Translations under genes and position numbers: made by a program
Notes under the pieces: generated by a model
Database searches by the model: none
Told to the model about the DNA's origin: nothing
What the model saw: the letters and a program-made list of their open reading frames with translations, nothing else
Part shown: positions 44,813 to 64,000 of the stretch, one piece after another
Numbering within the stretch: the stretch's first letter is position 1
How the letters are laid out: every line of letters begins with the position of its first letter
NCBI GenBank assembly: GCA_041671325.1
Contig: JBAZBR010000001.1
Location: 415,504 to 479,503, forward strand
Direction of reading: 5' to 3'
DNA: 64,000 bases
Origin: Patescibacteria group bacterium
GTDB taxonomy: Bacteria; Patescibacteriota; Patescibacteriia; PEXW01

Positions 44813-44842
44813 AAGGCAAACCACGGAAGGTTTGCCTATTCT
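44813..44842 (-). terminator. Intrinsic terminator-like hairpin after the 53-aa gene
   Basis: On the minus strand, ggcaaacc-ttccgt-ggtttgcc followed by tttttccc. Confidence 0.45.
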
Positions 44843-44853
44843 GCAATGAAATT

Positions 44854-45015: not shown

Positions 45016-45037
45016 ATCCTCTCCTTTTGTTTTGCAT

Positions 45038-45466: not shown

Positions 45467-45577
45467 CCAAACCTCCATGTTTGTTCATTTTTATTTCCTC
45501 TGAAAAGACTTTGTTTAAAATCTGTTCAGAGGAAATGGCGAAGTTTTTGAGGCTTCGCCAATCCAAAGAAAGTTACA

Positions 45578-47283: not shown

Positions 47284-47400
47284 TAAGTTACCTCCATGCT
47301 AAGGGTTTTTTCAATAATACGTTTTGTTGTTGGTTTTGCTAAAATATCTTAATTTTCAAGATGACTTTAGTAAAACTAACAAACCTCTATTAGGTTTATT

Positions 47401-47429
47401 ATATTATTTCTAATTGAGCCTTCTGTCAA
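47401..47429 (-). promoter_or_regulatory. Consensus sigma-70 promoter (TTGACA, 17 nt, TAATAT) about 110 nt upstream of the 333-aa secreted-protein gene
   Basis: Minus strand: ttgaca gaaggctcaattagaaa taatat. A 9-bp GC hairpin (47451-47483) lies just upstream. Confidence 0.5.
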
Positions 47430-47754
47430 AAATATGAAAAATAAATTGATGGTGTGCGGTTGCCCGAAAGCATTCCGCACACCACCATTTTTCCTTTTAC
47501 TTCGCCCGGTTTACGAATTTGCAACGAGAAAAAGCAAAAGGTCTTTAGCATATGGCTGTCTTGCCATGGTTGTGGTGCCAAGCATACCACCAGCCCGAAA
47601 TCATCTTCGGGTCCGAGGATCCAACCAAGTGATTATCTGATTGGAAATTTTTGTGAGGTTCTCCCACATTCCGCAGGACAAATTGCTTTCTCCTGCCGAA
47701 TGCAAGAAGGAAAACCACAGCGGTTCTCCTTCTAAAACGAACAGCTTATTTCCG

Positions 47755-47910
47755 TTATTCCAGTACTTCGCATCTTGCTTTCACTTCCGAAGGAATGAAC
47801 CCCAACGCGACATCGGCTGAAATGTCTCCGTCGTCCACTTTTGCGTCGAGAGCTCTATAGAACTCCTCAAACGCTAAGTCAAACTCGGCTTGCTCTTCAT
47901 GTGTCGCCAT
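47755..47910 (-). CDS. Small acidic protein (about 51 aa)
   Basis: Start MATHEEQ, preceded by AAAGGA 7 nt upstream. The track ORF extends to 47973. Confidence 0.35.
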   Translation of the reverse strand: MATHEEQAEFDLAFEEFYRALDAKVDDGDISADVALGFIPSEVKARCEVLE

Positions 47911-47962
47911 GTTTTCATCCTTTCTGGTGACCGAATTTTTGTCTTTAGTTTGTTTTTCGCGG

Positions 47963-48175
47963 CTACTCCACAACTCTTACGAGAATAGCCTCTTTCGCTG
48001 CAGCTCCTTCCATGGCGATTTCCATTCGCAATGGTTGTGTATTCAGTATTCCCACCAAACCGACAATGGCATCAAGAATAGCAGGCACGATTAAAACTGT
48101 TTTTCCATAAAATAACCATCCAGTTACGCAATAAAGCGCTGTTGCCAAAGCCGCATAAGATATAAGCCTCATCAT
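47963..48175 (-). CDS. Small (70 aa) two-TM membrane protein
   Basis: AAGGAGA 3 nt upstream of ATGATG; hydrophobic. Confidence 0.45.
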   Translation of the reverse strand: MMRLISYAALATALYCVTGWLFYGKTVLIVPAILDAIVGLVGILNTQPLRMEIAMEGAAAKEAILVRVVE

Positions 48176-48915
48176 TGCAAGATCTCCTTGTAATGGTTTA
48201 TTCGTTCATTTTTATACTTTCAAAAACAAGATTAAAGACGATTTAAAACCCCATCAAACCATCATCTTCACTGTTGTTTTAAAAAATTTGGGAGAGCGAG
48301 GGCCGAAGCCTCTCGCTCTCACCGGGGAGGAAGGAGGTGAACAATAAACATGCTTTACCAGGGAAGCTCCTTGGGATTTGACGAAAGAGAATGCGGCACT
48401 TGTCCCAGTGGATTGGAGCTTCCCTGATTTTTTTCTTTTTCCAAAAATACCAGTTTTATTGATACGCTTGGAAAAAGAGGCAACCGACCCTAATAAGCCA
48501 GTCGCCTCAAAATTTGGTTTCGCCTTGGAAACCTGCTTTTGTATGGCAATAAAGCCGCAAGCACCGCTAACGAAACTAGGCATTTTTATCAAAACAGGTG
48601 CCGCCTGTTGACCCGTACATCTTGCTGTCCTGCAACAGTCAAAATACCTACGGGTCCGAGGCCGTTCCCTAAGATACCAGGAAACTGATTTTTCAAGGCA
48701 ATTTCTGCCCGCAATTTACTTTTATAAAAATATTATAAAGGAAAATTCCCGAAAGAAATAATGGGAGGAGAGGATTTTGGGGTCCTACTCCTCCCTGGGC
48801 ACCATATGAAAGAAAATGAGGCAATGAGGCTAAGTGAGGCTTTTTAGTTTTTCTTTTTCTCTACTTTATTAAATAGTGGACAAGCAGAATTTCGGAAAAA
48901 TGATCGAACTATCGC

Positions 48916-49395
48916 TTAATTCTTGACAGCAAGACCGACAAAGAAGCCTATGACTAAAATAATGGGTATAACTCCCAATGACCAGTTGCCCAAGTTTGAC
49001 TTGATACGGATGGCTACCGCATTACCCCCGTCAAACGAGATCAACTCATAGGTCTGGGTAGTAAAATGTCCCGAATTCAAAACCGGGATATCCCAAGTCT
49101 TCATTTCGCGTCCAGCCGAAATTGAGATTATTCCACATTCAACTGAATCATGTGTGAGGTACGTCATAACCGCAAAGTCGTCTTCGGAAGTTTTAACTTC
49201 CGGCTCGACTCTGTTTACGGAATTCACGAAAGCGTCTCTTACCACATCGGAAAACGTCGCGCTTTGTAGCAACGTTTCAATCTGCGCCGTTTCATAAGCA
49301 GAAACGGTGACGTCGAAAACGGTGGCAGTTTTGGCAATCACAGGGTATGCCACAACACAGATCACGAATACGAGAATGATTGTCTTAAAATTCAT
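48916..49395 (-). CDS. Secreted/anchored hypothetical protein (signal peptide + C-terminal TM)
   Basis: TAGGAGC RBS-like element upstream. N-terminal signal; C-terminal VIPIILVIGFFVGLAV anchor. Confidence 0.5.
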   Translation of the reverse strand: MNFKTIILVFVICVVAYPVIAKTATVFDVTVSAYETAQIETLLQSATFSDVVRDAFVNSVNRVEPEVKTSEDDFAVMTYLTHDSVECGIISISAGREMKTWDIPVLNSGHFTTQTYELISFDGGNAVAIRIKSNLGNWSLGVIPIILVIGFFVGLAVKN

Positions 49396-49436
49396 TTCGA
49401 GCTCCTAAGCTAAATTGTTTATTTTACGTTTTTCCC

Positions 49437-49509
49437 TTTTTTCAACCGACGAAATTGCTTCTTCGGCTGGAAAAATCGCAGGATGCCGGATGGCATCCTG
49501 CAAAATGAC
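49437..49509 (-). terminator. Copy 1 of a repeated ~70-nt intergenic cassette: 10-bp GC hairpin (gcaggatgcc-NNNN-ggcatcctgc) + U-tract, then a conserved spacer leading into the next RBS
   Basis: Near-identical copies at 49776-49846 and 50985-51058. Each sits between consecutive minus-strand genes. Confidence 0.65.
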
Positions 49510-49749
49510 CTAATGCAAGCCAAGGTCTCTTGGGTTGACCTTAGTTAACACTATTAATATGGTCACCATCATCAAGCAAAATTCAAAAATTGCGGTGGTG
49601 AAGAAGCCAATACCCACTCCTATAATGATTGATGTGGGTTGCGCTTCAAATAAAGTGATGATTATCACCGCTATTGCTACTCCCAATCCTGAAGCGATCA
49701 CTAGATTGAGAGCCAATATCACCAACAGCGCTTTCATTTGAATTTTCAT
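49510..49749 (-). CDS. Small (79 aa) two-TM membrane protein
   Basis: AAGGAGA RBS-like element 5 nt upstream; flanked on both sides by the cassette. Confidence 0.5.
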   Translation of the reverse strand: MKIQMKALLVILALNLVIASGLGVAIAVIIITLFEAQPTSIIIGVGIGFFTTAIFEFCLMMVTILIVLTKVNPRDLGLH

Positions 49750-49775
49750 TTATTTCTCCTTTTTGTTTTTTTCTC

Positions 49776-49846
49776 TTTTTTCAACCGGAGAATTGCATCT
49801 TCGGCTGGAAAAAACGCAGGATGCCGGATGACATCCTGCAAAAGAG
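49776..49846 (-). terminator. Copy 2 of the repeated terminator cassette
   Basis: The same hairpin, with gacatcctgc in the second arm, followed by a U-tract. Confidence 0.65.
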
Positions 49847-50937
49847 CTAGTCTTCTTCGTAAGACCGGCAGACTTCACGTTTGATCTCATCAAAAACTAG
49901 GCGACTCGATCTAGCTTTGCGAGGAATCCGAGTTGGATTAACCCGATCTACAAAACTGCAAAGCGCTACTTGCGATCGCTGATATTGCTCTTCCAGCTTT
50001 TCAAGCCAGCGCCTTTTTTGTGCCTCCTCTCTCGCTCGTTTGATATCCTGCTCATCAAACTTTTTCAGAACAGCGTTTCCAATCACAATAGCTATGAAAA
50101 CTACGCAGAAGGTCCCGACAGCAAGATACATGACGTTCGCGGAATGAGTGGCGTTGAAGATCCGGCCCAGCACCATGAAAATGACAAAAGTCAAAATCGG
50201 GTAGATAGGCCGGAACATCCACAACCATGGCTTATTCCAGTACCAGGACTGATCCCAATAAATATATTTGGGTTCGCCAGAAAATATATCAATCCGGAAA
50301 GGGTTGACATATTTCCAATTTGGCACTCGGCCGATTGCCAGGTTCCACAGGCAAACCACGGCATTGACCAAAACCATAAAAATCCAACCAATTGCCACAA
50401 TAAACGGCTGGAGGGAATAGGCCGGAAAAATCCGGCGACGGCGCATATGGCATTGGTCAAAAGCTGGATGGGTAAACCAGAAATTTACCCATTTCCAGTC
50501 CCAGGGTTTGGCCGGAAACAGTTTCGGATCAACAGCAACGGTTTCCATCGCTTGGTCCATGGTGTTTTCCAGGTCATTGAGAAACGCCGAATTGCCACTA
50601 TTTAAAACTGTTGTACGATATTTACTATCCGACCTGCTAAGGTAGTTATCCTCAGGAGAAGACAGCTTTATTCCATTTTCAGTCTTATCCCAGCAAATGG
50701 TGATGAAAATTCGGTGTGCACCTGAGGATTTGAAGGGAATGTAAAAAGCTAGTTCCGACAGAGGCCGGATATATCGATGCTCATTTTTTTTCTTGACCGA
50801 ATAATCAACGATCAAGACGCATGGGTTTTCTCGGCTTTCACTTTTCAGCTTAGCCAAGGTTTCGGCGTTCGTGCACCACCTGACCACTGTGGTCGGATTG
50901 GCTGCGACTTTACTCTCAACAAACAACTGAAGCATTT
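49847..50937 (-). CDS. Hypothetical membrane protein (about 363 aa: N-terminal soluble domain, 3 TM, C-terminal charged coiled-coil-like tail)
   Basis: Start reassigned to MLQLFVESKV, with AAGGAGG 4 nt upstream. The track ORF extends to 51091, reading through the repeated cassette. No recognisable domain. Confidence 0.5.
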
Positions 50938-50984
50938 TTCCTCCTTTGAATTTTAGCTTCTTTTTAATTCTGTTTTTTAGTTTT

Positions 50985-51058
50985 TCTCTTTTCAACCGAC
51001 GAATTGCTTTATCGGCTGGAAAAAGTGCAGGATGCCGGATGGCATCCTGCAAAATGAC
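50985..51058 (-). terminator. Copy 3 of the repeated terminator cassette
   Basis: The same gcaggatgcc/ggcatcctgc hairpin followed by a U-tract. Confidence 0.65.
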
Positions 51059-51094
51059 TTTTCGAGATAGTCCTACTGTCACAAACGACATTGA

Positions 51095-51478
51095 TTAAGG
51101 CCGCCAATGCCGTTCCTCAAAGTCAAGGTGTTCAACTTGACCAAGAGGAAGATAGAAAACTGCGATCGTATCAAGGGAACCATCATCCTTTTGCCAAAAA
51201 CACAGTTTTTGTCCGTATGACGGCAACGCGTCGTTCACGCGCACAGATGGAAAATTTTGCTCAGTGAGCGTATCAAAAGGCGGTTCTTTGCCAACCGCCA
51301 CAAAATAATCAACGACAACTTTCGTCTCGCCGTCGATTTTGACGGTATGTACTCTGTAGCTGAGTACATCAGCTTCCTTCGGAATCCCTTTACTTATCAG
51401 GCTCATGCCCCAGCCAACCGAAAAAATGATAGCAAGAGCTATTACGACCACGATAACGTTACTTGTTCTTCTGTTCAT
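51095..51478 (-). CDS. Small membrane-anchored hypothetical protein (127 aa)
   Basis: AGGAGG 5 nt upstream; N-terminal TM VIVVVIALAIIFSVGWG. Confidence 0.5.
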   Translation of the reverse strand: MNRRTSNVIVVVIALAIIFSVGWGMSLISKGIPKEADVLSYRVHTVKIDGETKVVVDYFVAVGKEPPFDTLTEQNFPSVRVNDALPSYGQKLCFWQKDDGSLDTIAVFYLPLGQVEHLDFEERHWRP

Positions 51479-51618
51479 TTCTACCTCCTGTTAAACATTT
51501 AGTTTTTAATTTTTTCATTTTCTCATCTCGAATAACCTTTTGAAAAGATTAACCGGGACGAAAGCAGAGTTTAAGAAAATGTAAATTTTTAGGTACTCTG
51601 CAAAACCCTCAATTTCTA

Positions 51619-51861
51619 CTAATCAGTCTCCATGTAAAGCACGAGAGCATCACGAAGACTTTTGTACAGCCATATGCCTATACTTATGATCCAGTTTGTC
51701 ACATAAGCAATACCAACAAACACGACTGCTAGAGTTAACCCCGCAATTGGCCACTTAACATCCTTAAGAGTAAATGAACAGTGGTAGAAGAAAAAAAGGT
51801 ATACTGGACAAAAAATTATATACCTTTGAGTCTTTTTCCAAAACATTGGGAACTCAGACAT
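51619..51861 (-). CDS. Small (80 aa) two-TM membrane protein
   Basis: GAAGGA RBS-like element upstream; hydrophobic. Confidence 0.4.
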   Translation of the reverse strand: MSEFPMFWKKTQRYIIFCPVYLFFFYHCSFTLKDVKWPIAGLTLAVVFVGIAYVTNWIISIGIWLYKSLRDALVLYMETD

Positions 51862-52077
51862 TTTTTCCTTCTTTCAAAATTGGTTTATTTTCTTCTATTT
51901 ATTTGAAGACATAAAATCCAAATATCTTGAATTAATCTTTATCTCCCCAAGTAAATAGAAAAAATTGTCAAGGTGCCTTCCCTTTTCTCGCAATTATTCA
52001 AAATCGCTTTACTTAACATACCCGCGCTTGCATGGCAAAAACCAGATCCTCCCAAAAAGCGTGGTATGAGAGCGCCT

Positions 52078-52195
52078 GTCTTTAAATAAAGGCTGCTTTT
52101 TTGCCCTTGCTCTCTCGGCAAAAAAGCCAGTAAATGCGATTTTTATGAATTAACAAACAACAGGGAAATATAGTCTATTTCTTGAATTTTGTCAA
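52078..52195 (-). ncRNA. Candidate small RNA / transcription attenuator: consensus sigma-70 promoter followed ~80 nt later by an intrinsic terminator
   Basis: Minus strand: TTGACA (plus 52190-52195), 17 nt, TATATT (plus 52167-52172). Hairpin ggcttttttgcc / ggcaaaaaagc(ag)cc at plus 52091-52130, followed by UUUAUUU. Confidence 0.35.
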
Positions 52196-52320
52196 GCCCA
52201 TGTACCACTAAGGTTAGCCATTTTTATTCCTCCCAAACCCGTTCCAGTCTTCGGCTTTCCCGCACCCGCCTTCGATACCTTTGCAAGGGGAGGAGCTTAA
52301 AGAATTTTGTATAAAAAATT

Positions 52321-52358
52321 GGATTAAAAAGAGCTTCTGCAATTTCTGCAAAAGCTCT
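52321..52358 (-). terminator. Terminator-like hairpin after the 909-aa gene
   Basis: Minus strand: agagcttttgcag-aaa-ttgcagaagctct followed by ttttt. Confidence 0.4.
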
Positions 52359-52423
52359 CATTTGTTCATTTTACACATATGGACTTTCCAAGTTTCCAGG
52401 TGTGTAGGCTAAAGACCGGTTTT

Positions 52424-55153
52424 TTACTTAACCAAGAGCATTTTCTTGGTTTGGGTGAAAGATCCAGCAGACAAGCGATAAAAATAAACCCCCGAAGCGT
52501 ATCTGGAAGCCTCCCAGGTTTTGGCGTACTCGCCCGCTTCCTGGTATTCATTCAATATCGTTTCCACTTTCTGGCCCAGAAGGTTATAGACTTCCAGGCT
52601 GACTTCGCCGGCTTGAGGCAAAGTATAACTGATGGTCGTAGTTGGGTTAAAGGGATTGGGATAATTCTGGCTCAAAGCAAATTCTTTAGGCAGAGAAACA
52701 TCTTCCTCTGTTTCAGTATTTTGCTTCATTAATCCAGAACCGCTGGCGTTGAACTTGCCCATGATAAATCCATTAGTATAATCCCAGCCATAGCCTTCAG
52801 CCCGCCACCAGTAAGCCTGGTACAGAAAGCTGGAACCCGTGGACAAGAAAGAGTGGATAGCGCTGGAATACTGGCCATAGCGACAGGCCATGACGACATC
52901 AGCGTAACCGTCGCCATTGATGTCGCCCATTTGCATATACGGCATGGCATCCAGACTGTAGGAATCAAAATGCCACCACCAGCCTCGGTAATTAAAGCCT
53001 GAACCCGTGGAAAGAAAAGCCAGAAGCGCAGTTTCGCTTGGGCCATAACGGCAGGCCATGACTAAGTCTGATTTGCCGTCGCTATTCAAGTCGCCCATTT
53101 CCATGAACTTCATGGCATCTAGACTGAACCAGCCATCAGCCCAGAACCAGTACGGCACATAATTGAAGTAAGTGCCGTTGGTAAGGAATACATGGAGGGC
53201 GGTACTGGCTGGACCATACTTATAAGCCATGACAATATCGTCCCCGCCATCACCATTCAAATCGCCCGCGCTTACGAACTTGACGGCTTCGGCGCAGTAC
53301 CAGCCCGGCGCATGCCACCAGCCTTCATTACCCTGGTATATGAAATTCGTACCAGTGGAAAGCAGGACATGGATGCGAGTATCGCAACTACCGTAATTAT
53401 AGACTACGGCGATATCATCTTTGCAATCGCCGTTAAAATCCCCAGACACCGCGCCCTTGATGGCATAAGTGCAATAGCCGTTTGATTGCCACCAATAAAC
53501 CTGGTATTCAAAGCTTGAACCCCGGCTTAGAAGCATGTGAATGCCCACGCTGGATTCGCCATATTTGTAAATCATGGCAATATCCGTCAAGCCATCGCCG
53601 TTATAATCCCCGGCTATGCTCTTAAAAACGTACTGCAGGCAATAATTATTGAGGATTTTCCAGCCATCATTGCCTTGGTAGGCGAAGTTAGAGCCGTTGG
53701 AAAGCAGTACGTGCGCGCGGGTTTGGCAACCGCCGTAATCATACAAAACCGCCAGATCAGACTTGGGATCAACGATGCCAGTTGAGATGTGCACCTGGAT
53801 TGGCCAGACTTGCGTACCCGCAGCATTGTAAGCGTAAACAGTTCCCCCGCGCTCTTCCATCCGGCCAGTCTTGAAGTATTGGACATTGCCTTCGCGATCG
53901 CGGGTTGGCGCGCCAATGACCCAAGCCCCGGCTTCCTGGATGTTGGTATAGGTATCCAGGAAGTTTCCATACAAATAATAAGCTTCGTTGGTGGCTTCGG
54001 GATTGGTGTAATTGCGGGGGTCATAGAAAATCATGCCCCTGCCCCGCGCTCCCCAATTGAATTCTTGGACGCAATAATCCGTGGCCCGGCCAAAAGCTGG
54101 CCAATTGGAGACGACCTTTCCCATCGCCTCGCCAACCATTTGCCTGGCACCGTTTCTTTCATACGCCCGAGCAATCAAGTATGAGTGCTGGTTATCCCAG
54201 CCGGAATTTGTCCAGCCTGGCGCGCAATTCGGATATTGGTTTACGGAAACCGAACTGCCGTTCCAGTACAAGTAGCCTTTTTGGAAGTCCTGCCTGGCAT
54301 TGCCGTAACCCGCATACTCATTGTTTATAGGCATGCCCAGCGAACTTTGCGGACCATTCAAACTGTTCCACTTGCCGTAAAAGCCGGTTTTTACCACGTA
54401 GGCTTTTCTGGCACCGCCTAAAGCGTCATAAACAATGGCACAAGCACCATAAACAGTACCGAAATAATCCTCACGATAACAGCGTCGGGCGCAGTTATTG
54501 GCATCATAGCGGTCGTTGCTGTCCCAATTTCCCGGCCACCATGCCACGTTACTGACCTTGTTCCCAATGCTGCTGCCATGACGGACTTTCTCAACTTCAA
54601 AGATGTTGCGGTTGAGAGAAGTGTAACGATGTTGACCATCATCTGAATAAGAACAGTTCGATGGCCCAGTTGGCGTCCCGATATCCTCGAAATTCCACGG
54701 AATCGAACTTCCATTCACCGCGGTTTGATGTTGGTAGTGAATATGTGGCCCAGTTGAATTTCCGGTAGTACCACACATTCCTATGACTTGCCCTTGCACA
54801 ACGTACTCGCCAACTTTAACTACGACGCTTTGCAAATGAGCTAAACGGTCATACGATGATTCACCTATTTTTATCTCAACGGTATTGCCCCAACCATCGT
54901 TATAACCACCACCATCATACACGGCAGCTACAACTCCCGAATTCGACGCTAAAACTGGTTTGTTTAAGTCACTTGTACTGATTGTCCCCCAATTGAAATC
55001 GAATCCATATCTGTAGACACTTACATGTCCACATTGATCCTGTCCGCGGCTGCACCACCAAGTTTCCCCATACATAAATGGGGCTTTCGTACCAGCTATA
55101 GCAGTGGACACAATAGCCATAGCCAATACGACAACAGTAAATACCTTCTTCAT
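52424..55153 (-). CDS. Large secreted multidomain protein: N-terminal M23 (LytM) metallopeptidase domain, central FG-GAP/VCBS repeat region, C-terminal T9SS-type sorting domain (Por secretion tail)
   Basis: AGGAGG 9 nt upstream; signal peptide. M23 motifs H..L......G..V..G..IG..G.TGNSTGPHIHY. At least six GDxNGDG repeats. Por-tail C-terminus (NYPNPFNPTTTISYTLP...GVYFYRL). Confidence 0.7.
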   Translation of the reverse strand: MKKVFTVVVLAMAIVSTAIAGTKAPFMYGETWWCSRGQDQCGHVSVYRYGFDFNWGTISTSDLNKPVLASNSGVVAAVYDGGGYNDGWGNTVEIKIGESSYDRLAHLQSVVVKVGEYVVQGQVIGMCGTTGNSTGPHIHYQHQTAVNGSSIPWNFEDIGTPTGPSNCSYSDDGQHRYTSLNRNIFEVEKVRHGSSIGNKVSNVAWWPGNWDSNDRYDANNCARRCYREDYFGTVYGACAIVYDALGGARKAYVVKTGFYGKWNSLNGPQSSLGMPINNEYAGYGNARQDFQKGYLYWNGSSVSVNQYPNCAPGWTNSGWDNQHSYLIARAYERNGARQMVGEAMGKVVSNWPAFGRATDYCVQEFNWGARGRGMIFYDPRNYTNPEATNEAYYLYGNFLDTYTNIQEAGAWVIGAPTRDREGNVQYFKTGRMEERGGTVYAYNAAGTQVWPIQVHISTGIVDPKSDLAVLYDYGGCQTRAHVLLSNGSNFAYQGNDGWKILNNYCLQYVFKSIAGDYNGDGLTDIAMIYKYGESSVGIHMLLSRGSSFEYQVYWWQSNGYCTYAIKGAVSGDFNGDCKDDIAVVYNYGSCDTRIHVLLSTGTNFIYQGNEGWWHAPGWYCAEAVKFVSAGDLNGDGGDDIVMAYKYGPASTALHVFLTNGTYFNYVPYWFWADGWFSLDAMKFMEMGDLNSDGKSDLVMACRYGPSETALLAFLSTGSGFNYRGWWWHFDSYSLDAMPYMQMGDINGDGYADVVMACRYGQYSSAIHSFLSTGSSFLYQAYWWRAEGYGWDYTNGFIMGKFNASGSGLMKQNTETEEDVSLPKEFALSQNYPNPFNPTTTISYTLPQAGEVSLEVYNLLGQKVETILNEYQEAGEYAKTWEASRYASGVYFYRLSAGSFTQTKKMLLVK

Positions 55154-55223
55154 TGTTACAGACCTCCTGAGACATAGTCTCGGTTTAAGTTACTATTTAA
55201 TTGTCAACGTACGTTTTTTAGAT

Positions 55224-55970
55224 TTACTTAATTAAAAACGAACTAATAATGTTGTTAAATGTATTTAAAGCCGAAGTCCTAATATCCCCACCTGAGTAGA
55301 GCCGAAGAAAAATGAATTTTTTTTCATTGTAAACAATTTGAGACATCAGTTGAGGAACAGAATTACTAGCGAAAAGCTTACTTCCAATTCCATGGTTATA
55401 CCCAACTGAAGTACTTTGCGTTACCGATATACCCGCAAACTGAATTTGTCTCTCTGTATGACTAATTTCCTGACCCAAATCTTGAGCAAATTCCCAACCC
55501 GCCACTTTTGTATTTTGAACACCTATATCGATATATGATTGATTTAAATATAATCTTGTCCAAGGATCGCGAACATCTTCTGTGGTTATATCACCGTTGA
55601 GTAGAGAAATTCTAAGTAGGTCATTATTATCAACGGCTGAAATTTTCCAATCTTTTGGATATTTAAAATTGATACCATAATTATCGTTGACATATACCTT
55701 CCATTCACTAGTATTTACATTACTATTCGCATTTCCATTAAATCCCGAATTTACGTTCAAGTTTGAATTTACGTTAATTGGGGAATTAATATTTACATTC
55801 TGGTTAGTTTTATTAATAATATTGTCGTTATTGGTATTAATATTCTCTTGTTTTAACAAAAAATATCCGACGATTAATAAAGCGGCAATAATTACCCCAA
55901 ATATTACCCAGGCGATAATTGTGTTTTTTGGGGTATTTAAGGGCTGATTTTGAGGGTTATTTTGGTCCAT
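55224..55970 (-). CDS. Membrane-anchored hypothetical protein with Asn-rich low-complexity linker
   Basis: AT-rich, no Shine-Dalgarno site (host-like). N-terminal TM IIAWVIFGVIIAALLIVGYFLL. Confidence 0.5.
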   Translation of the reverse strand: MDQNNPQNQPLNTPKNTIIAWVIFGVIIAALLIVGYFLLKQENINTNNDNIINKTNQNVNINSPINVNSNLNVNSGFNGNANSNVNTSEWKVYVNDNYGINFKYPKDWKISAVDNNDLLRISLLNGDITTEDVRDPWTRLYLNQSYIDIGVQNTKVAGWEFAQDLGQEISHTERQIQFAGISVTQSTSVGYNHGIGSKLFASNSVPQLMSQIVYNEKKFIFLRLYSGGDIRTSALNTFNNIISSFLIK

Positions 55971-56039
55971 AAATGATTAATTAATATTTGCTTAATTTAA
56001 GGCTATCACACTTTTTGGCTAAAAAAGACAAAGTTATCC

Positions 56040-56330
56040 ACGATAAAACCGCGACGGCGCGACGGCGCTCGGGTCACCGCGAATGTCGGGTTTCGCGTGC
56101 TATTAGTGGGTTATAGCCCGCTTCACCCTTTATTCGCGTGCCCCTCTACCCCATCCCGCCGTATGGCGGGACGTGCTCACTACGTTCCGCGCCACATCTG
56201 CGGGGATCCCCTGATTTTTAACCAAATGTGCCGCTCTTCTTCACAAACCCGTGCTCGTCACGCTGCTGCGAGCCTGCGCTCCTGTCTTGTGGGGACCCCA
56301 AAATAAGAAACCTTAAATAATCCTGCATTC
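56040..56330. other. About 290-nt GC-rich (~60%) noncoding block in AT-rich surroundings; candidate structured RNA or decayed foreign fragment
   Basis: No protein-like ORF. Multiple short GC stems (ggggatcccc, gcgacggc x2). Confidence 0.3.
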
Positions 56331-56597
56331 CTGATTTACAGGGACCCAGATACAAAAAATAAACCTCGACTTATCTTAGCCGAAACCTTTTCACCACAAC
56401 GATACGGAGATCTACACCCAAACCCAACCCCCCTGTTAAACCGCTGGTTCCAATTTCACATCCACGGGTAAAATACACCACGTCATTGCGAGTGCAAACG
56501 AAGCAACCCCATTTAATATTGAATCAAATATATTAAACAACTATAATTACAAAACTAAGCAAACATAATATTTATAAATCCTTTTCATATATAAAAC

Positions 56598-57230
56598 ATG
56601 CTCAGATCAGAACGTATTGCCAAAAAAATTAATAAGAAAATTCAGTTATGGTCTAAAAACCAAACCAAATTAATCGTGGCAATTGACGGCTATGCCGGTG
56701 CCGGGAAAACCACAGTTACTGACTATCTTGCGAAACAAAACCATAATGTACTGCCTGTCCACTTGGATGATTTTATTAAGCATTGGAAAGACAGGAAGAA
56801 GATACTTGATACAGCTAAAAATAAATCACGAATTTTTGAATGCCGCTGGTTTCGCTATGATGATCTTGAAAAATTACTAAATGCTTTTAAAACAAAAAAT
56901 AAAGGGGTAATAAAATTTAGAACATACAACTACAACAAAAATAATTTCGGTCCCCAAAAATCGTTTGACTTATCCAAAAAAATTCTGATGATTGATGGCA
57001 TCTTTCTATTTAATCCTAAACGTAAAATATTCAAATTGCTGGATAAAACAATTTACCTTAATGTTGATTTTGCCAAAGCTGATAAAAAGAGAATTGCCAG
57101 GGAAAAGAAAAAATGGGGTAAAAATTATATTCCAGAAAATCATCCCGATAATTGGACAAAATACTACAAAAAAGCTTATCGCGGGTATGTAAAAAAACAA
57201 AAACCACAAAATAGCGACTTGGTGTTTTAA
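56598..57230 (+). CDS. P-loop nucleoside/nucleotide kinase (uridine kinase / nicotinamide-riboside kinase family-like)
   Basis: Walker A IDGYAGAGKTT, and a Udk-like second half (ILMIDGIFLF...DKTIYLNVDFAKADKKRIARE). Confidence 0.55.
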   Translation: MLRSERIAKKINKKIQLWSKNQTKLIVAIDGYAGAGKTTVTDYLAKQNHNVLPVHLDDFIKHWKDRKKILDTAKNKSRIFECRWFRYDDLEKLLNAFKTKNKGVIKFRTYNYNKNNFGPQKSFDLSKKILMIDGIFLFNPKRKIFKLLDKTIYLNVDFAKADKKRIAREKKKWGKNYIPENHPDNWTKYYKKAYRGYVKKQKPQNSDLVF

Positions 57231-57303
57231 GTGTAATATTTTATTAGATTATTAATTAAGTCCCGACAACTCTCCCCTCTCCCTATATCGCCACTTCCGT
57301 GCG

Positions 57304-57333
57304 AGGTTTCCTGGAATAAAAAAAGACGACAGT
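57304..57333 (-). terminator. Rho-independent terminator after the Nudix-like gene
   Basis: Minus strand: agacgaca-aatac-tgtcgtct followed by ttttttt. Confidence 0.6.
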
Positions 57334-57350
57334 ATTTGTCGTCTTTGTAA

Positions 57351-58106
57351 TCAAACTGCCAACAACATGCGCTCAAGCAATGGGACTAGATAATCAACGC
57401 AGGTGTGGGTAGTCGAAAATGTACAGATAGTATTTTTAGTTACTCTCATAATTTCGAGCTGGGAGAATTCTGGGCGCTCATTCCGCTGGAGTAATTCTTC
57501 AGTATACAGACGAAAATGTGCACGTAATTCGTCACCGGTGAGAGCTAAACTCACCCGAAAAATTACTGCAAGGAAATTATGATCACCGCCACTTTTTAGT
57601 AAATATGGGGTAATAGCGTTAACCTTTTGCGAAGTATGTACACTTAGACCTACTTCTTCTTCAATTTCCTTCGAGATATTGCCTAGGATGTTAAACTTTC
57701 CATGATCTACATCAGAAAAATCTAAGCCACCACCAACGCACTGAAACCTGTTGGGCGTCGATGTGTGAGAAGCCATTTTGCCAAAGGAGACAAAACCATC
57801 AGATGTTTCGAGAATTGCCGATGTATAGAGAACCTTACAAGCATATTCTTCTTGTAATTCGTTTTCGAGCGTAAACATATAATGCGCATAATCTGTTTCA
57901 TCTAATACAACTTGAAGCTGATCATTTTGCATGTTTATTTTACTAACCGTAAATACTACACCACGGCGTAATGATGGCCTGTTACCTATTAAAAGCTCCC
58001 AATTGCGTTCAATTTGATAAACAATTTTTTCTGGAAGAGCAACTTTCTTACCAGAAAACACTACATCTATTCTGTGTGCGACGGGTTGTAAAAGTACTGT
58101 TTTCAT
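57351..58106 (-). CDS. Nudix-fold hydrolase-like protein (degenerate Nudix box)
   Basis: KEIEEEVGL matches the REUxEExGU helix of the Nudix box, with R replaced by K. Upstream G/E positions are non-canonical. 4-bp overlap with the SIR2-like gene. Confidence 0.45.
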   Translation of the reverse strand: MKTVLLQPVAHRIDVVFSGKKVALPEKIVYQIERNWELLIGNRPSLRRGVVFTVSKINMQNDQLQVVLDETDYAHYMFTLENELQEEYACKVLYTSAILETSDGFVSFGKMASHTSTPNRFQCVGGGLDFSDVDHGKFNILGNISKEIEEEVGLSVHTSQKVNAITPYLLKSGGDHNFLAVIFRVSLALTGDELRAHFRLYTEELLQRNERPEFSQLEIMRVTKNTICTFSTTHTCVDYLVPLLERMLLAV

Positions 58107-59350
58107 TTTATCTCCTTTAAGTTTCTCATCAGGGCTAAGAACACATCACCAGCGCATTTCTTTACCAAAGCATCATCATTTTGAACTGACTCTAAAGGAT
58201 ACGAGATGAATTTACCATTTATCAAGTACCCTTCTGGATCAATGTACAAAACTTTTAATTTCTTTCGCCTTGCTGCATGCTGAATTTTTCTACGATCCGC
58301 ATGACTTCCGATAACAATTAGACTTTTTGCCTTTGGATGAAATTGTATATTAGGTATTAAATGTTGTTCATCAAACCTTCTTACCATTAGTTCTTTTAAG
58401 CCACTTTTCGTAGCAAGACCATCAAAATTATTGGTAATGATTGACCCAACAATATACCCCTTTTTGTGCAAATTTGTCAAGTGTTTATAGAATTGTGATG
58501 GCTTTGCGGTTAAGCATGTAATATACATATATGTCATTTGATGAAAACTTTCTTTTTGATCAATAATGATGTTCCTGACAAACCGATCTTCGCTTAAGGA
58601 AAGCGTAAACTTACCTGAAATTGGATCCCCAACTGAATAAACACTATGGAGATAATGAAGGGGTGGAATTTTTGCTTCAATTGCTGGCCCACAACCTAAT
58701 TCAACTTGAGCCGGAAAAAATTTAATAAGTTCAGAAACATTATTGATTATTTTTGGATTTCCGCGCTTATCTTTTTTTCTCATACCGCTGTTAAGTATTG
58801 TAAAAGCACGATTTATAAAAAATGGATGTGGGCGTTTATGAGAAAATATTGATATTTCCAAATTTGAATAGTTTTTAGGAAAAATCCTTTTAACATGTAA
58901 ATCAGCAGGATGATTTTTAAATATGTTTAATTCAATATTTAGATCACTTTTTGAAAAACTTTGAATTTTTTTATCTAAAGTTTGGAAATGTTTATTTCTT
59001 GTCCAATTGTTTTTTATAAATAAAGTATTTAGATCTTTTAAATATTGATTTATTTCTTGATTTGGAAAACAATAATTCAACCAAATAGTTGATCTCTGCA
59101 AAGCTAATGCTTTAATGTTGTGTTTATCTTTAACTAAACCATAAGTATGTCGGAAATGAATCATCCTGCGACGTCTGTCATTTTTTTCATGATATCCCGA
59201 AAAAAAGGCATTCTCTTTTTCTTGGGTTCTTCTCCAAATACCCTCATCAACACTTCTGTCCCATTGAAAATTTTTACCAGAATAATATTTCTTCCAGGTC
59301 TTAATATCTTTAACTTTTAAGCTAATTATGTATGGGAATTTAATCGTCAT
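58103..59350 (-). CDS. SIR2-family (sirtuin-like NAD+-binding) domain protein with ~200-aa unknown N-terminal domain. No Zn-ribbon or canonical HG motif.
   Basis: ELGCGPAIEAKIP (GAGIS.ESGIP-like), AKPSQFYKHL...IITNNFDGLATKSG (PN..H...TQNIDGLH..AG-like), LIVIGSHA (IGTS-like). Confidence 0.6.
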   Translation of the reverse strand: MTIKFPYIISLKVKDIKTWKKYYSGKNFQWDRSVDEGIWRRTQEKENAFFSGYHEKNDRRRRMIHFRHTYGLVKDKHNIKALALQRSTIWLNYCFPNQEINQYLKDLNTLFIKNNWTRNKHFQTLDKKIQSFSKSDLNIELNIFKNHPADLHVKRIFPKNYSNLEISIFSHKRPHPFFINRAFTILNSGMRKKDKRGNPKIINNVSELIKFFPAQVELGCGPAIEAKIPPLHYLHSVYSVGDPISGKFTLSLSEDRFVRNIIIDQKESFHQMTYMYITCLTAKPSQFYKHLTNLHKKGYIVGSIITNNFDGLATKSGLKELMVRRFDEQHLIPNIQFHPKAKSLIVIGSHADRRKIQHAARRKKLKVLYIDPEGYLINGKFISYPLESVQNDDALVKKCAGDVFLALMRNLKEIK

Positions 59351-59387
59351 ACTTCCATTTTGCTTAATCCAAAACCCAACCCTCTCC

Positions 59388-62204
59388 CTAAATCGCCGCC
59401 TCCAATTTCACATCCACGGGTGTAATCGGCAAAGTGAATTGGAAAGTGCTGCCCTTGCCTGGGCCATCGCTTTCCACCCAAATCTTGCCGCCATGCACTT
59501 CCACAATCCTTCGGGCCACATACAAGCCCAAACCCGAGCCGTCAGGATTCACCTGGGCAATGCCAAAACCCCGCACGAATTTAGTAAACAAGCCTTTAGC
59601 CTCTTTGGGATCCAAACCCCGGCCCGAGTCTTTAACTTTCACGTGCACCCACTCGCCTTCCCTTTCTGAAGTCAAGATTATACTGCCTTTTTCCGTATAC
59701 TTGATGGCATTATCAACCAAGTTCAAAATCACATCCGTGATCTTGTCGTCAATAGTCAGCAGGGGTAAAGCAGTTTTGGGTTTCTTGTATTCCAATTTCA
59801 ATTTCTTGTCTTTGGCAATCTTGTCCAAAACCTGCAATTCCTTATTAATCATGTCTTCCAATTGCATTGGCCGCTTGTCCAAAATCAATTTCCCGCTTTC
59901 AATCTTGGAAACATCCAAGAAGAGATTGATCAAACGGATCATCCTTTGGCTGGCATCCAACAAGCTTTCGATTATCTTTTTCAAGTCAGGCGTAAGTTTG
60001 CCATAATCCCCTTCCATCAACATGGAAAGGTAACCCATAATGCCGGTCATGGGCGTGCGCAATTGGTGGCTGGCAATAGAAACGAATTCGCTTTTGGCTT
60101 GGTCCAATTCTTTCAAATGCACATTAGCCTCAGCTAACTGTCCATTAGTTTCTTCCAGCCTTCGGACCAATTCAATGTTTTGGTAAACCACGCCAGTCTG
60201 GTCAGTGATTGCCTGCATCATGTTATAGTCATTCCGGCTAATTTCACCTTTGGGTTTGGCCAACAGGAAATCAATCGCGCCCACCACTTCATTTTCCGTC
60301 ACGATCGGCACGGCCACCACGGATTTAATGCCCGCCATCTTTTGCATGGCTTCGCAGCCTTCTTTGGGTACTGGTGGGCTGAAAAAATCCGATAAGTTTG
60401 AACTTACGCGAACTTGCCTGGCTTTCATAGATTCAATTGAAAGGGTTTTATCCACATTATAATCACCCCAATATTCATTAAAAGGCTTGGGCAGTAAAGC
60501 CATGACTTTATCCGTCAGCTTGGTTTTGGTAATGGCTTCTGGAAAAATTTTTCGTCTGGATTCACCCAAAAACAAAAGAATCCCTCCCACAAAACCCAGC
60601 TCGGTATAAATGGCGTCAACGATAGATTGAGTGACTTTCTTGAATTCCAAAGTCTGGGTAATGAGATTGGTAACTTTTTGCACCGCATCCAAAAACCGGT
60701 TACGGTCTTCCAACTGCAAGTTCTTTTGTTTTAACTTTTCCGTGGCCAGGGCAATATCTTTTTCCAATTTGATATTAAATAACCGGATTTCTTCATATAA
60801 CCGGGCTTTTTCCAAAGCACTGGCCAATTGCGGCCCTAATAATTGCAGGAGGTTTAAATCTTCATCAGAAAAAGGATCCCCGGATAACTTTCCACCCAAA
60901 ACTAAAATTGCGGCAATACGATCTTCTGTTAAAACTGGAAAAAGCACTGAAGCGTTCAGTTTATCCAGTTCTTCTTTGGATTTTTCCAAAGAAGTTCTTT
61001 GTTTGTCATCAGTGGTGTCTTCAATTTTCCGCTCCAAGGCTTCCAAAACTACGGTATCTTTTTGCTTTTTAATATACTGAGCCAACGCGCTGTTTCGCGT
61101 TAATACTGTTTCTTTATTACCGGTTGGCAGTTGGTTTACAAAAATCTCTCCACCTTGCCCTGGCAAAATAATCTTTGCTGATTGAATCTTTAAATCTTGA
61201 TGTAATTTAGTTTCAACTTCATCTAATAATTTATCAAGGTCGATTTCTTTATTAATGATTTCAACCAGATTTTGAAGTATTAATTGATAATTAACCTTAG
61301 CTTTAAAAAATAAGTTGTCTGTTATCTTTCCAATATAACTTTTCAACGGATCAAAAATAATAACTAAAACTATTGAAAGAAATATTGCGATTGCTGTTTG
61401 ATATGTTTGATTTGAAACTTGCTGTGGAAGAAATACCGCAAGACTAACAATAAAAACTGAAACTAATAAAACGACTAATGAATAAGTTACCGTCCGAATA
61501 ACAACAAAACGAATATCCAGTAAATGATGTTTCGCAATTGCATAAGCCGTAAATGCTGCGACAAAAATTGCGGCAAATGGCCCAACTTTAGTAAGTTCAT
61601 CAAAACCAGCAAAAGTTGGTAGAATTATATTGGTTAAACTTGCTATTACACCAGAAATAAGAACACCCATAAATAAATACGCAATTTGCGTGCGACTTGT
61701 ACCTTTTGCTTTACGAAAACTTTGAATTGTTCGACCAAATGCTAATGACATGTAAAATATAAAGTACGCGGCAAAAACGTAATAACCAGCACCGGGTGTA
61801 AATAATACACGTCCACCTAATCCTTGATTCTGATCAAATGAAATACTGTTAATAAAATAATTTGTTGGTACTAATAATAACAATACTATTGTTGGCAAAG
61901 GAAGTAATACCAATAACCGTTTAGTTAGAACTTTTCCCCTTAATGGGAAATACAATGTAAATAAAAAGAAAAAGTAGGGAATTAAAATTGGTCCTAAAAA
62001 TGAAGCTTTGCTCCAAAAAATTGCAGTTCCTAAAGAGGTTGATTTATCAGTTAAGTAGTCAGTTATTACCCATAATGCAGATGAAATAATAAATGCAAAA
62101 AAAGTTTGATTAATTTTACTGTGACTATTCCTTGAAATAATAAAAATGCCCAAAAATATAAATAGAATTCCAACTACTATTGACGTTTCATTAAGTGTAA
62201 TCAT
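59388..62204 (-). CDS. Sensor histidine kinase: N-terminal multi-TM sensor, two GAF domains, HisKA + HATPase_c
   Basis: H-box SHQLRTPMTGIMGY; N, G1 and G2 boxes (VDNAIKYT, DSGRGL, GSGLGLYVARRIVE). About 7 N-terminal TM helices. Confidence 0.85.
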   Translation of the reverse strand: MITLNETSIVVGILFIFLGIFIISRNSHSKINQTFFAFIISSALWVITDYLTDKSTSLGTAIFWSKASFLGPILIPYFFFLFTLYFPLRGKVLTKRLLVLLPLPTIVLLLLVPTNYFINSISFDQNQGLGGRVLFTPGAGYYVFAAYFIFYMSLAFGRTIQSFRKAKGTSRTQIAYLFMGVLISGVIASLTNIILPTFAGFDELTKVGPFAAIFVAAFTAYAIAKHHLLDIRFVVIRTVTYSLVVLLVSVFIVSLAVFLPQQVSNQTYQTAIAIFLSIVLVIIFDPLKSYIGKITDNLFFKAKVNYQLILQNLVEIINKEIDLDKLLDEVETKLHQDLKIQSAKIILPGQGGEIFVNQLPTGNKETVLTRNSALAQYIKKQKDTVVLEALERKIEDTTDDKQRTSLEKSKEELDKLNASVLFPVLTEDRIAAILVLGGKLSGDPFSDEDLNLLQLLGPQLASALEKARLYEEIRLFNIKLEKDIALATEKLKQKNLQLEDRNRFLDAVQKVTNLITQTLEFKKVTQSIVDAIYTELGFVGGILLFLGESRRKIFPEAITKTKLTDKVMALLPKPFNEYWGDYNVDKTLSIESMKARQVRVSSNLSDFFSPPVPKEGCEAMQKMAGIKSVVAVPIVTENEVVGAIDFLLAKPKGEISRNDYNMMQAITDQTGVVYQNIELVRRLEETNGQLAEANVHLKELDQAKSEFVSIASHQLRTPMTGIMGYLSMLMEGDYGKLTPDLKKIIESLLDASQRMIRLINLFLDVSKIESGKLILDKRPMQLEDMINKELQVLDKIAKDKKLKLEYKKPKTALPLLTIDDKITDVILNLVDNAIKYTEKGSIILTSEREGEWVHVKVKDSGRGLDPKEAKGLFTKFVRGFGIAQVNPDGSGLGLYVARRIVEVHGGKIWVESDGPGKGSTFQFTLPITPVDVKLEAAI

Positions 62205-63929
62205 TTATTTGCCAAAAATTTTCTTTCCAATATATTGATATTTAACCGCTCCTCTGTTTATAAGTGGACTTTTCTCAAATGGACCCTCTGCGAATTGGAA
62301 GAGTTTTACTAGAATATTTGCAGATTTAAAACGACTATCGACAATTAATTTATACCCATTGCTATAGTTTGGGAGTTGATTTTCAAAAATTCTTTTTATT
62401 ATCCCTACGTCAGCCGAAGTAGTCCCATTCTTTAGTTCCAAATCAATTTCAAATCGATAATCATCAGAAATAGCCATTTGGAAACTTGCAACAAGTTCTG
62501 ACACCTCCTTTAAATTCTCTATCATACGCCCAACTTCTTCGGGATAAATATTGGATCCGTCAATTGAAACCGTACCATCAGATCGTCCAAACACATATAT
62601 AAAAGGTAAAGGAAGTATTTTATTAATATCATTTCCCTGGTTTTTCAAAATTGCTTTTAAATTATATGAATAAGCTGATGAAATTCTAAAGACATCACTG
62701 TAACCTATCATCCCACTATCATCCTCAATGTTATAACGAATTATTGGTTGTGAAGCATGAGATTTTAAAACGGTAGTAAGAAGTTCAGTTCTAGTGACTC
62801 CAGTTGATGTTTTATTTGTAACTTGTTCTTCAAAATATGATATCGGTACACTTTGAAAGATCATGGGTAATCTCTTTTCTATTATTGGATCCCTTCCAAA
62901 AAGTTCTTTGATAAAAGCATTCGCTCTTTGTTCATTAGTAGGCATTACTTCTTCGTTTATGAAATGTTCTTTTGCTATTTCGCTAGCAAGCTTTTTATCG
63001 AATAAGTAAACTTGATTAATACGGATTAAATTACGCAAAATAATAGATAGAGGTGTTTCAAACCCTTCCGCTAAACCTTTATCTGTTGAGCCATAAGAAG
63101 AAGCTATAATGCACTTCTTACCAAGTTTTGTTTTTAAATAATCCCGCCATTCCTCCACAAAACCTTCACCACCAGTAATTACATCAATATGATACTGCGA
63201 CCAAGTTATTCCTTGTCGCTCACCTTCAGTTATCATGTTTCGTAAAAATGGTGGATAACCAGAAATTAAATAATTGTGTTTTGGACCTAAAAGTTTAAGA
63301 GTAGTAATAAGCTCATTAATATCTGTACCAATATTAATCATTTGTCCACACTTTCTTGCTGACTTAGTAAAATCGATTGCGGTTGGCCAGGTACCAAAAG
63401 CCCAACAGTTAAGAATTTTATACTCCTTACCTTTATAGCCAACGATATAATCAATTCCAAAAGGAACAAAAACTTCAAACTTGTCCTCTTCTTTTAATGC
63501 CTGAGTCCAATAAGTAGGATTTCCAGCGACACCTGCACTCCGAAAAATTATTCCATCTTTAGGTAATCTACCCCCCACGCATCGCTGTTCAAGAGGATAG
63601 GTTTTAACGTAATTTTGCTTTGTAGTTTGAGGAACTAATCGAGAAAAATCTTCAATTGTCTTGATATCACTTGGATTAACACCGTGCTCATCTAGAAACT
63701 TCCTGTATGCTGGAGTTGTTTTAACTGCACGTTGAAAAATGAACAATAATTTCTTTTTAGCAACATCCTCTAGTACCCCCGGTTTAATTGAAGTAAGGAA
63801 TTCTTCTAAATATTCTTGATCTGACCAAACTATATAATCAAAAACAACAAGCATTAGATCTGGAATCCAAATATGGTGATTTAGTAAATAAACAAAAACA
63901 CGTACGATAAATTTATTAATTTTTTTCAT
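62205..63929 (-). CDS. Phenylacetate-CoA-ligase-like adenylate-forming enzyme (CapK / coenzyme F390-synthetase family)
   Basis: RSAGVAGNPTYW (AMP-binding SSGTTG-like) and a PaaK-like architecture. 574 aa. Confidence 0.6.
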   Translation of the reverse strand: MKKINKFIVRVFVYLLNHHIWIPDLMLVVFDYIVWSDQEYLEEFLTSIKPGVLEDVAKKKLLFIFQRAVKTTPAYRKFLDEHGVNPSDIKTIEDFSRLVPQTTKQNYVKTYPLEQRCVGGRLPKDGIIFRSAGVAGNPTYWTQALKEEDKFEVFVPFGIDYIVGYKGKEYKILNCWAFGTWPTAIDFTKSARKCGQMINIGTDINELITTLKLLGPKHNYLISGYPPFLRNMITEGERQGITWSQYHIDVITGGEGFVEEWRDYLKTKLGKKCIIASSYGSTDKGLAEGFETPLSIILRNLIRINQVYLFDKKLASEIAKEHFINEEVMPTNEQRANAFIKELFGRDPIIEKRLPMIFQSVPISYFEEQVTNKTSTGVTRTELLTTVLKSHASQPIIRYNIEDDSGMIGYSDVFRISSAYSYNLKAILKNQGNDINKILPLPFIYVFGRSDGTVSIDGSNIYPEEVGRMIENLKEVSELVASFQMAISDDYRFEIDLELKNGTTSADVGIIKRIFENQLPNYSNGYKLIVDSRFKSANILVKLFQFAEGPFEKSPLINRGAVKYQYIGKKIFGK

Positions 63930-64000
63930 TTTAATTTAAGGCTAAATTTCATGATAATGTATATTTATGTTGTGAATCATCAAATTTAATAATACCATCA

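Follow-up and report, generated by a model that had tools for sequence, protein, structure and literature searches.

Nested copies of a sensor histidine kinase terminus in a Patescibacteria genome: possible traces of serial gene insertion

Gene content of the locus

A stretch of 64,000 nucleotides (nt) of DNA from a Patescibacteria group bacterium (GenBank assembly GCA_041671325.1, contig JBAZBR010000001.1, positions 415,504 to 479,503), hereafter the window, carries an intact gene for a sensor histidine kinase (HK), and two further copies of the 3' end of this gene lie behind it, with other genes in between. Coordinates refer to the + strand of the window; HK lies on the - strand, and the three copies of its terminus, designated A, B, and C, are read in the sense of the kinase gene. 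In that sense, the order of features is HK ending in copy C, a SIR2-like gene, a Nudix-like gene, a terminator, copy B, a reversed gene for a kinase of 210 amino acids (aa), and copy A with the native flank (Table 1). The interval from A to C measures 2.9 kb, and the SIR2-like and Nudix-like genes are nested inside it, between B and C. The layout is the one recognized in a preliminary description of this DNA, in which one repeat pair (B/C) brackets the two-gene insert and a second pair (A/C) brackets the larger block with the kinase gene.

Table 1. Genes, terminus copies, and flanking features at the HK locus, in window coordinates (7TM, seven-transmembrane; UTR, untranslated region; L007 and L014, HK loci of relatives described below).
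Feature	Position	Strand	Remarks
Sensor histidine kinase HK, 938 aa	59388..62204	-	Intact; 7TM, GAF, HisKA, and HATPase domains
Copy C, live HK terminus	59369..59426	-	Last 12 codons ..ITPVDVKLEAAI, stop codon, 19 nt of native-type G-rich 3' UTR
21-nt core	59401..59421, second copy 56449-56469	-	Identical in C and A
SIR2-like gene, 415 aa	58103..59350	-	Starts 37 nt past the HK stop codon
Nudix-like gene, 251 aa	57351..58106	-	Start overlaps the SIR2-like stop codon
Strong intrinsic terminator hairpin	57322..57346	-	Closes the two-gene insert; -9.5 kcal/mol, z -5.6
Copy B, fossil HK terminus	57268..57298	-	..TEVAI*, then GGGAGAGGGGAGAGTT; without the 21-nt core
PRK/uridine-kinase-like P-loop kinase, 210 aa	56598..57230	+	Convergent with HK; promoter-like site at 56519-56547
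Copy A, oldest fossil HK terminus	56417..56474	-	ILPVDVKLEPAV (..PVDVKLEPAV), then G-rich 3' UTR
Ancestral HK 3' flank	56361..56416	-	GGGTGTAGATCTCCGTATCGTTGTGGTG..; homologous to the HK 3' flank of L014 and L007
Native locus continuation	55993..56330	-	GC-rich conserved non-coding stretch (56062-56330) and dispersed element of ~70 nt (55993-56061), both also downstream of HK in L007

A consensus scan of the 37-nt gap between HK and the SIR2-like gene shows no promoter-like or terminator-like site. The ancestral flank terminates in a weak terminator-like hairpin (56361-56388, z -1.3), and a hairpin-like stretch beside copy A (56478-56512), which occurs once in the window, folds weakly as well (z -1.7).

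Three copies of the kinase terminus

The protein specified by copy C ends in ..PVDVKLEAAI* (..ITPVDVKLEAAI*). An exact 21-mer, TCCAATTTCACATCCACGGGT, is found in C (59401-59421) and again in A (56449-56469), and at no other site in the 64 kb, even when three mismatches are allowed; none of 100 shuffled sequences reached two such matches. In C, the nucleotide tail that follows this 21-nt core is GGCGGCGATTTAG. The preliminary description had placed this 21-mer at the very end of the HK reading frame; in fact, 10 nt separate it from the stop codon, and the three codons AAI still follow it. Around it, A and C form a direct repeat of 58 nt (56417-56474 versus 59369-59426) with 79% identity, the third-longest among the direct repeats of the window.

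Copy B was recovered through a different part of the terminus. The 23-mer CCTCTCCCTAAATCGCCGCCTCC (59381-59403) is found again at 57276-57298 with three mismatches (0/100 shuffles), and the repeat as a whole covers 31 nt (57268-57298 versus 59373-59403) with 81% identity. The ungapped score of B against the 2.9-kb block was 19, compared with a null of 9.7 +/- 1.05 and a maximum of 14, and this score was reached in none of 300 shuffles. Where the 21-nt core would be expected, B matches it at 7 of 21 positions, which is the chance level. The HK terminus is thus present three times, as C, B, and A, and the repeat sites first described are confirmed, with positions that had been off by 3-8 nt.

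Translation shows that an in-frame stop codon is retained in all three copies. Copy C is a composite in terms of its similarities, with its left 27 nt matching A (25/27) and its right 31 nt matching B (25/31), the two parts overlapping at GGA; over the same 31 nt, identity to C is 81% for B and 68% for A. That B is nearer to C than A is would fit a younger displaced terminus for B.

Two Logan assemblies built from separate read sets (SRR6484324 and SRR18595301) match window positions 56040-64000 with a single mismatch in 7961 nt, such that the repeats appear in three assemblies in all and are therefore not an assembly artefact, which would have spoken against the preliminary description. The repeats are real and highly non-random.

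Comparison with the loci of relatives

The HK loci of relatives were compared (n=7: L004, L005, L007, L014, L015, L019, and L020; L007 is from the same organism as L015). HK orthologues in Patescibacteria are 43-73% identical. HK of the window is ~70% identical overall to its counterparts in L015 and L014, with a sensor domain that is 20-45% and a C-terminal 500 aa that is 85-97% identical. Scans of a genome collection and of metagenomes with HK retrieved distant relatives only, the nearest being ~70% identical over the whole protein, and exact-protein look-ups with HK, the SIR2-like protein, and the 210-aa kinase returned the same arrangement every time. A mosaic HK was considered as a sign of recombination and set aside as uninformative, low N-terminal and high C-terminal identity being common to all orthologue pairs.

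When aligned with the HK ends of orthologues, A, B, and C all prove to be homologous to the native terminus and 3' UTR; L014 reads ..GAAGCTGGGGGTTAAGGGAGGGGAGGGTTGGTTTTAGGTGTCGATTGCGGTATCGGTGTGG, and the same 21-mer is present in its orthologous HK as ordinary coding sequence. The match of C to the native 3' UTR ends 19 nt past its stop codon. Copy A alone extends into the downstream part GGGTGT..CCGTATCG.TGTGG, the sequence that L014 has past its HK stop codon and that L007/L015 have there in a form with indels. In L007/L015 and L014, distant relatives with ~70% identity over HK, the kinase gene is contiguous with this A-type flank. Because only A runs on into the native flank, A is the original terminus, and the 2.9 kb from A to C are therefore added material.

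Among relatives, the HK 3' flank is hypervariable. In L004 and L019 an NTP-transferase gene follows directly, then those for PGK and enolase; in L020 four additional genes precede the NTP-transferase gene; L005 has a gene of 524 aa; and L014 has a transfer RNA (tRNA) 3' fragment and a GNAT gene. L007 is the most elaborate, with a 215-aa gene, the GC-rich stretch and dispersed element, small peptide open reading frames (ORFs), two more genes, a kinase gene, an HK stub, and an IS30-like pseudogene. The kinase gene in L007 encodes a protein 77% identical to the 210-aa kinase of the window and has the opposite orientation relative to HK. Behind HK, the SIR2-like/Nudix-like pair is absent from all seven loci of relatives. 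The finding that might have overturned the preliminary description, namely the pair at the same place without repeats, was made in none of these seven loci. HK-end stubs were found in the window and L007 only, among the loci compared. An NTP-transferase gene upstream in this genome was tried as an orthologue of the one that follows HK in relatives, which would have implied a circular permutation, and was rejected (only 29% identity).

Several observations concern the surroundings of these loci. In L014, the tRNA 3'-half-like fragment lies ~210 nt downstream of HK (~9527-9585, - strand), followed by the GNAT gene, and ARAGORN finds no intact tRNA there; an integrative element may have left this fragment as a scar in the relative. 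A tRNA-type att site in the window itself was rejected, ARAGORN finding no tRNA or transfer-messenger RNA. Small ORFs lie downstream of HK at 2500-2950 of L007, and one of these, Cys-rich (..GRACCGGSCIGGNCKAVPK..), may be a peptide precursor. HK of the window sits among 7TM paralogues, a FeeM-type acyltransferase, a PaaK-like ligase, and a radical SAM gene.

The GC-rich stretch at 56062-56330 (~50% GC in an AT-rich genome) is 66-70% conserved with L007 2136-2290, with apparent compensatory stem changes by eye, and may be a structured RNA or a cluster of REP-like hairpins. No Rfam family reached its gathering score across the whole window, this stretch included, and a permissive Rfam scan of 55900-56650 gave a chance-level PreQ1 match only. 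The dispersed ~70-nt element, here called R (window 55993-56061, L001 1-79, L007 2284-2362), has a GC hairpin and, after it, the palindrome TTATC-GTG-GATAA; it lies upstream of three different operons and is the break point of both Logan contigs. A 13.7-kb Logan contig with element R at both ends was considered as a circle and rejected, as exact identity between the ends is limited to a short stretch and they are copies of the dispersed element with 88% identity.

The genes behind the kinase

The 210-aa kinase is one of a family with 60-77% identity across Parcubacteria, found elsewhere among isoprenoid-pathway genes; protein P0203 is 99% identical to it, and a member is also found within the HK neighbourhood of L007, next to the 284-nt HK 3' stub. 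On the basis of these comparisons, the 210-aa kinase gene is a conserved gene of the lineage and not cargo.

The SIR2-like protein represents a widespread family of ~410 aa, and its gene is found alone in other Patescibacteria. Its best non-self homologue, from Bacillus infantis, is 46% identical, which points to a horizontal origin of the gene. The AlphaFold2 model (pLDDT 92) has a sirtuin-fold C-terminal half and an N-terminal beta-rich domain of unknown type, and the top matches of this model in a Foldseek search of the PDB are Sir2 enzymes (E 7.7e-7, probability 1.0). The motifs GCGPSIEAGIPP and TNNFDGL are conserved. The PF02146 score of the protein, 21.3 bits, falls below the gathering cut-off of 24, and some homologues carry PF02146. 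The Nudix-like protein of the window has no Pfam match of its own, and its AlphaFold2 model, made from a 2-sequence alignment, was too poor for use (pLDDT 44). Its family comprises 491 representatives, and 18 of the 64 aligned members match PF00293 (best E 6.4e-8); the family profile matches Nudix proteins of the PDB (E 9e-4), and glutamates E147, E150, and E151 of the Nudix-box-like motif are invariant. The SIR2-like label given at the outset holds, then, at the level of the fold, and the Nudix-like label probably at that of the family.

The two genes form a conserved module: they lie side by side in Bacillus infantis, and P0113 and P0418 are fusions of the two. Elsewhere, the pair is found in ATP-grasp clusters and in nucleotide-sugar operons on Streptomyces plasmids. 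PADLOC gave no match for either protein, and curated phage genomes gave none for the SIR2-like family. 'Viral' matches to this family in IMG/VR look like plasmid or biosynthetic contexts. One of these, UViG_2912765049_000001 (L024), has a length of 151,949 nt, exactly that of the Streptomyces plasmid NZ_CP054917.1, which has the same SIR2-like match, and L024 is probably a plasmid misfiled as viral.

Sirtuin-centred NAD/ADP-ribose pairs are an obvious comparison. As in SIR2-Macro, SIR2-HerA, Thoeris ThsA, DSR, and the phage neighbourhoods that combine a sirtuin with a Nudix protein, a sirtuin-fold protein stands here beside a possible processor (Nudix) of an ADP-ribose-type product, and the two genes of such pairs are likewise adjacent and also fused. 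Neighbourhoods of sirtuin and Nudix genes for RNA repair are known in phages (PMC9503650). Unlike those systems, however, the window pair has no PADLOC or curated-phage match and has a unique N-terminal domain, and its family lies elsewhere in ATP-grasp or nucleotide-sugar operons rather than in defence islands. By these sequence-based comparisons, the pair is probably not a defence system, and by analogy with its contexts elsewhere its role is probably in NAD- or nucleotide-sugar-linked metabolism rather than in phage defence. A tempting defence reading is corrected in this way.

The pair is most likely promoterless and read through from HK, with transcription predicted to end at the pair's own terminator, because no promoter-like or terminator-like site was found between the HK stop codon and the SIR2-like start.

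Other gene-end stubs and their synonymous changes

If a stub were the relic of an allele that had been in use in another lineage, its differences from the live gene should be mainly synonymous. In L007, a second copy of the HK 3' end, 284 nt long (6065-6348), lies directly after the kinase gene and is 94% identical to its own HK and 85% to that of the window. Compared with that of L007, it has 17 differences, 15 of them at third codon positions; of its 16 changed codons, 12 are synonymous (P = 2e-5 against a neutral expectation of 0.24). The stub adjoins an IS30-like transposase pseudogene with frameshifts (L007 6470-7440), recognized by eye in the ORF fragments.

A comparable stub of a 5' end is found at lepA in the window (41401-41577, - strand), where the first 16 codons appear again 122 nt upstream of the real start (MPKNIRNFCIIAHIDH versus MSTNIRNFCIIAHIDH). 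Six of its eight changed codons are synonymous (P = 5.6e-4). The spacer between this stub and the real start contains a strong GC-rich hairpin (41462-41524, -19.6 kcal/mol, z -4.0).

Since their differences from the live gene are mainly synonymous, as expected of divergence under purifying selection, the L007 and lepA stubs look like displaced alleles from another lineage and not like decayed in-situ duplicates, to judge from codon comparison. In the HK stubs of the window, two of five changed codons (C/A) and two of three (C/B) are synonymous; the changes in A and B tend to be synonymous or conservative, with the stop codon kept.

Other features of the window

A 94-nt repeat occurs in three copies (49412-49505, 49750-49843, and 50961-51054) that are 76-81% identical and contain the perfect palindrome GCAGGATGCCGGATGGCATCCTGC. 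A small gene of unassigned function starts just downstream of each copy, and the repeat may be a shared leader or operator. The region 43800-55200 has a GC content of 0.44-0.55, compared with 0.38 overall, and is full of ORFs with no Pfam match; it encodes a 909-aa M23-peptidase/FG-GAP protein with a type-IX-secretion sorting tail. There is no long ORF at 47.3-48.9 kb.

Discussion

Three homologous termini of one kinase gene are nested at this locus. The outermost is contiguous with the ancestral flank, the SIR2-like/Nudix-like pair is absent from the relatives, and no recombinase, terminal inverted repeat, or hairpin site was found in the block or the ORFs scanned. We favour, with a probability of roughly one half, serial insertion or replacement at the HK 3' flank by recombination with the DNA of diverged relatives that had its anchor in the conserved terminus of HK. 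The 3' end of HK, together with the adjoining flank, would then be a local hotspot to which DNA was added at least twice. Each time, the incoming DNA would have brought new last codons of HK, a stop codon, and the start of a 3' UTR, such that the kinase stayed intact, and the previous terminus would have been displaced downstream and left as a dead stub. One end of the incoming DNA would be anchored by homology in the conserved HK terminus, while the other may have been closed either by an illegitimate join, as in homology-facilitated illegitimate recombination, or through a single crossover of the Campbell type between short homologous stretches. The stubs would in that case be displaced resident alleles.

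Insertion at the HK 3' end, as originally proposed, is upheld by the continuation of A into the flank seen in L007/L015 and L014, while the notion of a mobile 'cassette' is not. Recognizable mobile-element genes were found neither in the locus nor around it; the 2.9-kb block holds three genes with no recombinase among them, and the ORFs scanned between 38.8 and 64 kb have no integrase or transposase Pfam match. The block ends lack terminal inverted repeats, the repeats are of 31 and 58 nt and diverged rather than a short exact target-site duplication, and no attC-like hairpin was found.

In naturally competent bacteria, homology-facilitated illegitimate recombination is a well-established process (PMC3240628). 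As proposed here, it pairs homologous anchoring on one side, in a conserved gene, with a far join between non-homologous sequences; foreign genes would be gained and part of the resident allele left as a stub. The process needs no enzyme encoded by an element and can explain the variable lengths of coding sequence in the stubs (284, 39, and 15 nt). It is known from laboratory transformation assays, whereas here it is inferred from scars alone.

Several points weigh against serial insertion from diverged relatives. The insert is not anomalous in composition, the SIR2-like gene having a GC content of 0.31 against a gene mean of 0.376 (standard deviation 0.044) and a third-position GC content also within the range of the genome. 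The synonymous pattern is significant in the analogous stubs only (L007 HK and lepA); for A and B the tests gave P = 0.34 and P = 0.13, not significant, with too few sites. We infer the order and mechanism of events with no donor, empty-site, or intermediate genome found and with the nearest relative at ~70% over HK. The model also shifts the origin of the HK-SIR2 adjacency to an unseen donor, and read-through transcription is predicted from consensus scans alone. Finally, an identical 21-nt core with diverged arms also resembles the attL and attR of an integrase-driven element.

This last resemblance leads to site-specific integration of an element with a replacement HK 3' end, in which the 21-nt core would be the crossover site (attL = C, attR = A), the recombinase would act in trans or have been lost, and B would be the junction of a second element in tandem. 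The 12 differences between A and C all lie outside the core, for which the calculated chance is (37/58)^12, or ~0.005, and the tRNA 3' fragment downstream of HK in L014 suggests a region used by integrative elements. The closest precedent is e14, whose integration in the 3' end of icd in E. coli was reportedly described by Hill et al. in 1989. The e14 prophage and phage 21 both sit in the 3' end of this gene and leave the pseudogene icdC (PMC13626634). There, as here, a protein-coding gene has taken up an insert within its 3' end, the upstream copy restores the reading frame through an incoming replacement terminus that keeps the gene functional, and the old terminus persists downstream as a short 3' pseudogene, the differences between the copies being conservative or synonymous. 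The differences from that precedent are nonetheless considerable. There is no integrase or phage gene here, in the 2.9-kb block or in the ORFs scanned; the insert is 2.9 kb in two nested layers; the duplicated segment is 31-58 nt, whereas icdC is a longer C-terminal fragment; the inner stub shares no core (B matches it at the chance level); and one of the two inserted units, or 'elements', is a conserved host gene of the lineage. Furthermore, the core has no dyad symmetry, the repeats do not fold (z +1.5), and the 21-mer has no match in IMG/VR. Since the same 21-mer is ordinary coding sequence in L014, conservation alone can explain its identity in A and C. We regard site-specific integration as the main rival, though a rather unlikely one.

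Less probable still is segmental or tandem duplication in situ, either of the HK 3' region or through former HK paralogues, with the interior later deleted or replaced. The three copies are direct in orientation and colinear, as such duplication would give. In L007, the identities of 94% to its own HK and 85% to the window HK mean that the two L007 copies are each other's closest relatives, and the IS30-like pseudogene beside the stub could have driven a rearrangement. Neutral decay of a duplicate, however, does not lead one to expect the synonymous excess in L007 and lepA; lepA is a single-copy housekeeping gene whose stub amounts to merely 16 codons; and the unrelated sequences that follow each copy would require several further replacements. 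The tandem duplication entertained in the preliminary description is accordingly disfavoured by the pattern in these two analogous stubs, while the HK stubs of the window are too short to bear on it.

A functional motif reused at three places, for instance an operator, a 3' UTR element, or a terminator, is a very improbable explanation of the repeats. The G-rich tract past the stop codon (GGGAG.GGG..TTGGGTTT) is a conserved feature downstream of HK, present in L014 and partly in L007, and element R, a separate dispersed sequence with a palindrome, does recur at operon starts; yet A and B contain in-frame HK codons and a stop codon, and the repeats, which lack secondary structure, are confined to this locus within the window and do not appear at other loci, those of other kinase genes included. 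Chance similarity or an assembly artefact can be dismissed, given the shuffle controls (0/100, 0/100, and 0/300) and the same sequence in assemblies of two separate read sets.

Serial insertion anchored in the HK terminus also invites comparison with integrons. As in integron cassettes, a unit predicted to be promoterless would stand behind a resident promoter from which it is probably expressed, and units would be stacked serially with the youngest nearest the promoter. Unlike an integron, the locus has no IntI, attI, or attC hairpin, and its repeats are unstructured and derived from the host gene's own terminus.

If serial insertion is the correct explanation, the locus would be a dated, readable record of gene gain in an organism of the candidate phyla radiation with a reduced genome. 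The scar as such is a clear recombination scar of a familiar, ordinary type; its added value lies in the allele-like stubs, which hint at a general process of gene gain. It is conceivable, if rather doubtful, that one-sided homologous recombination with diverged DNA, using conserved gene termini as anchors and no element-encoded recombinase, is a main route of gene gain in reduced Patescibacteria with few mobile elements; the HK terminus would in that case capture genes without an integrase, promoterless genes being stacked at this site behind a sensor kinase. This suggestion draws on mostly synonymous gene-end stubs, of which there are at least three in the lineage (HK here, HK in L007, and the 5' end of lepA). 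If allele-like stubs prove general, scans for stubs in Patescibacteria could measure recombination-driven gene flow without the need for donor genomes.

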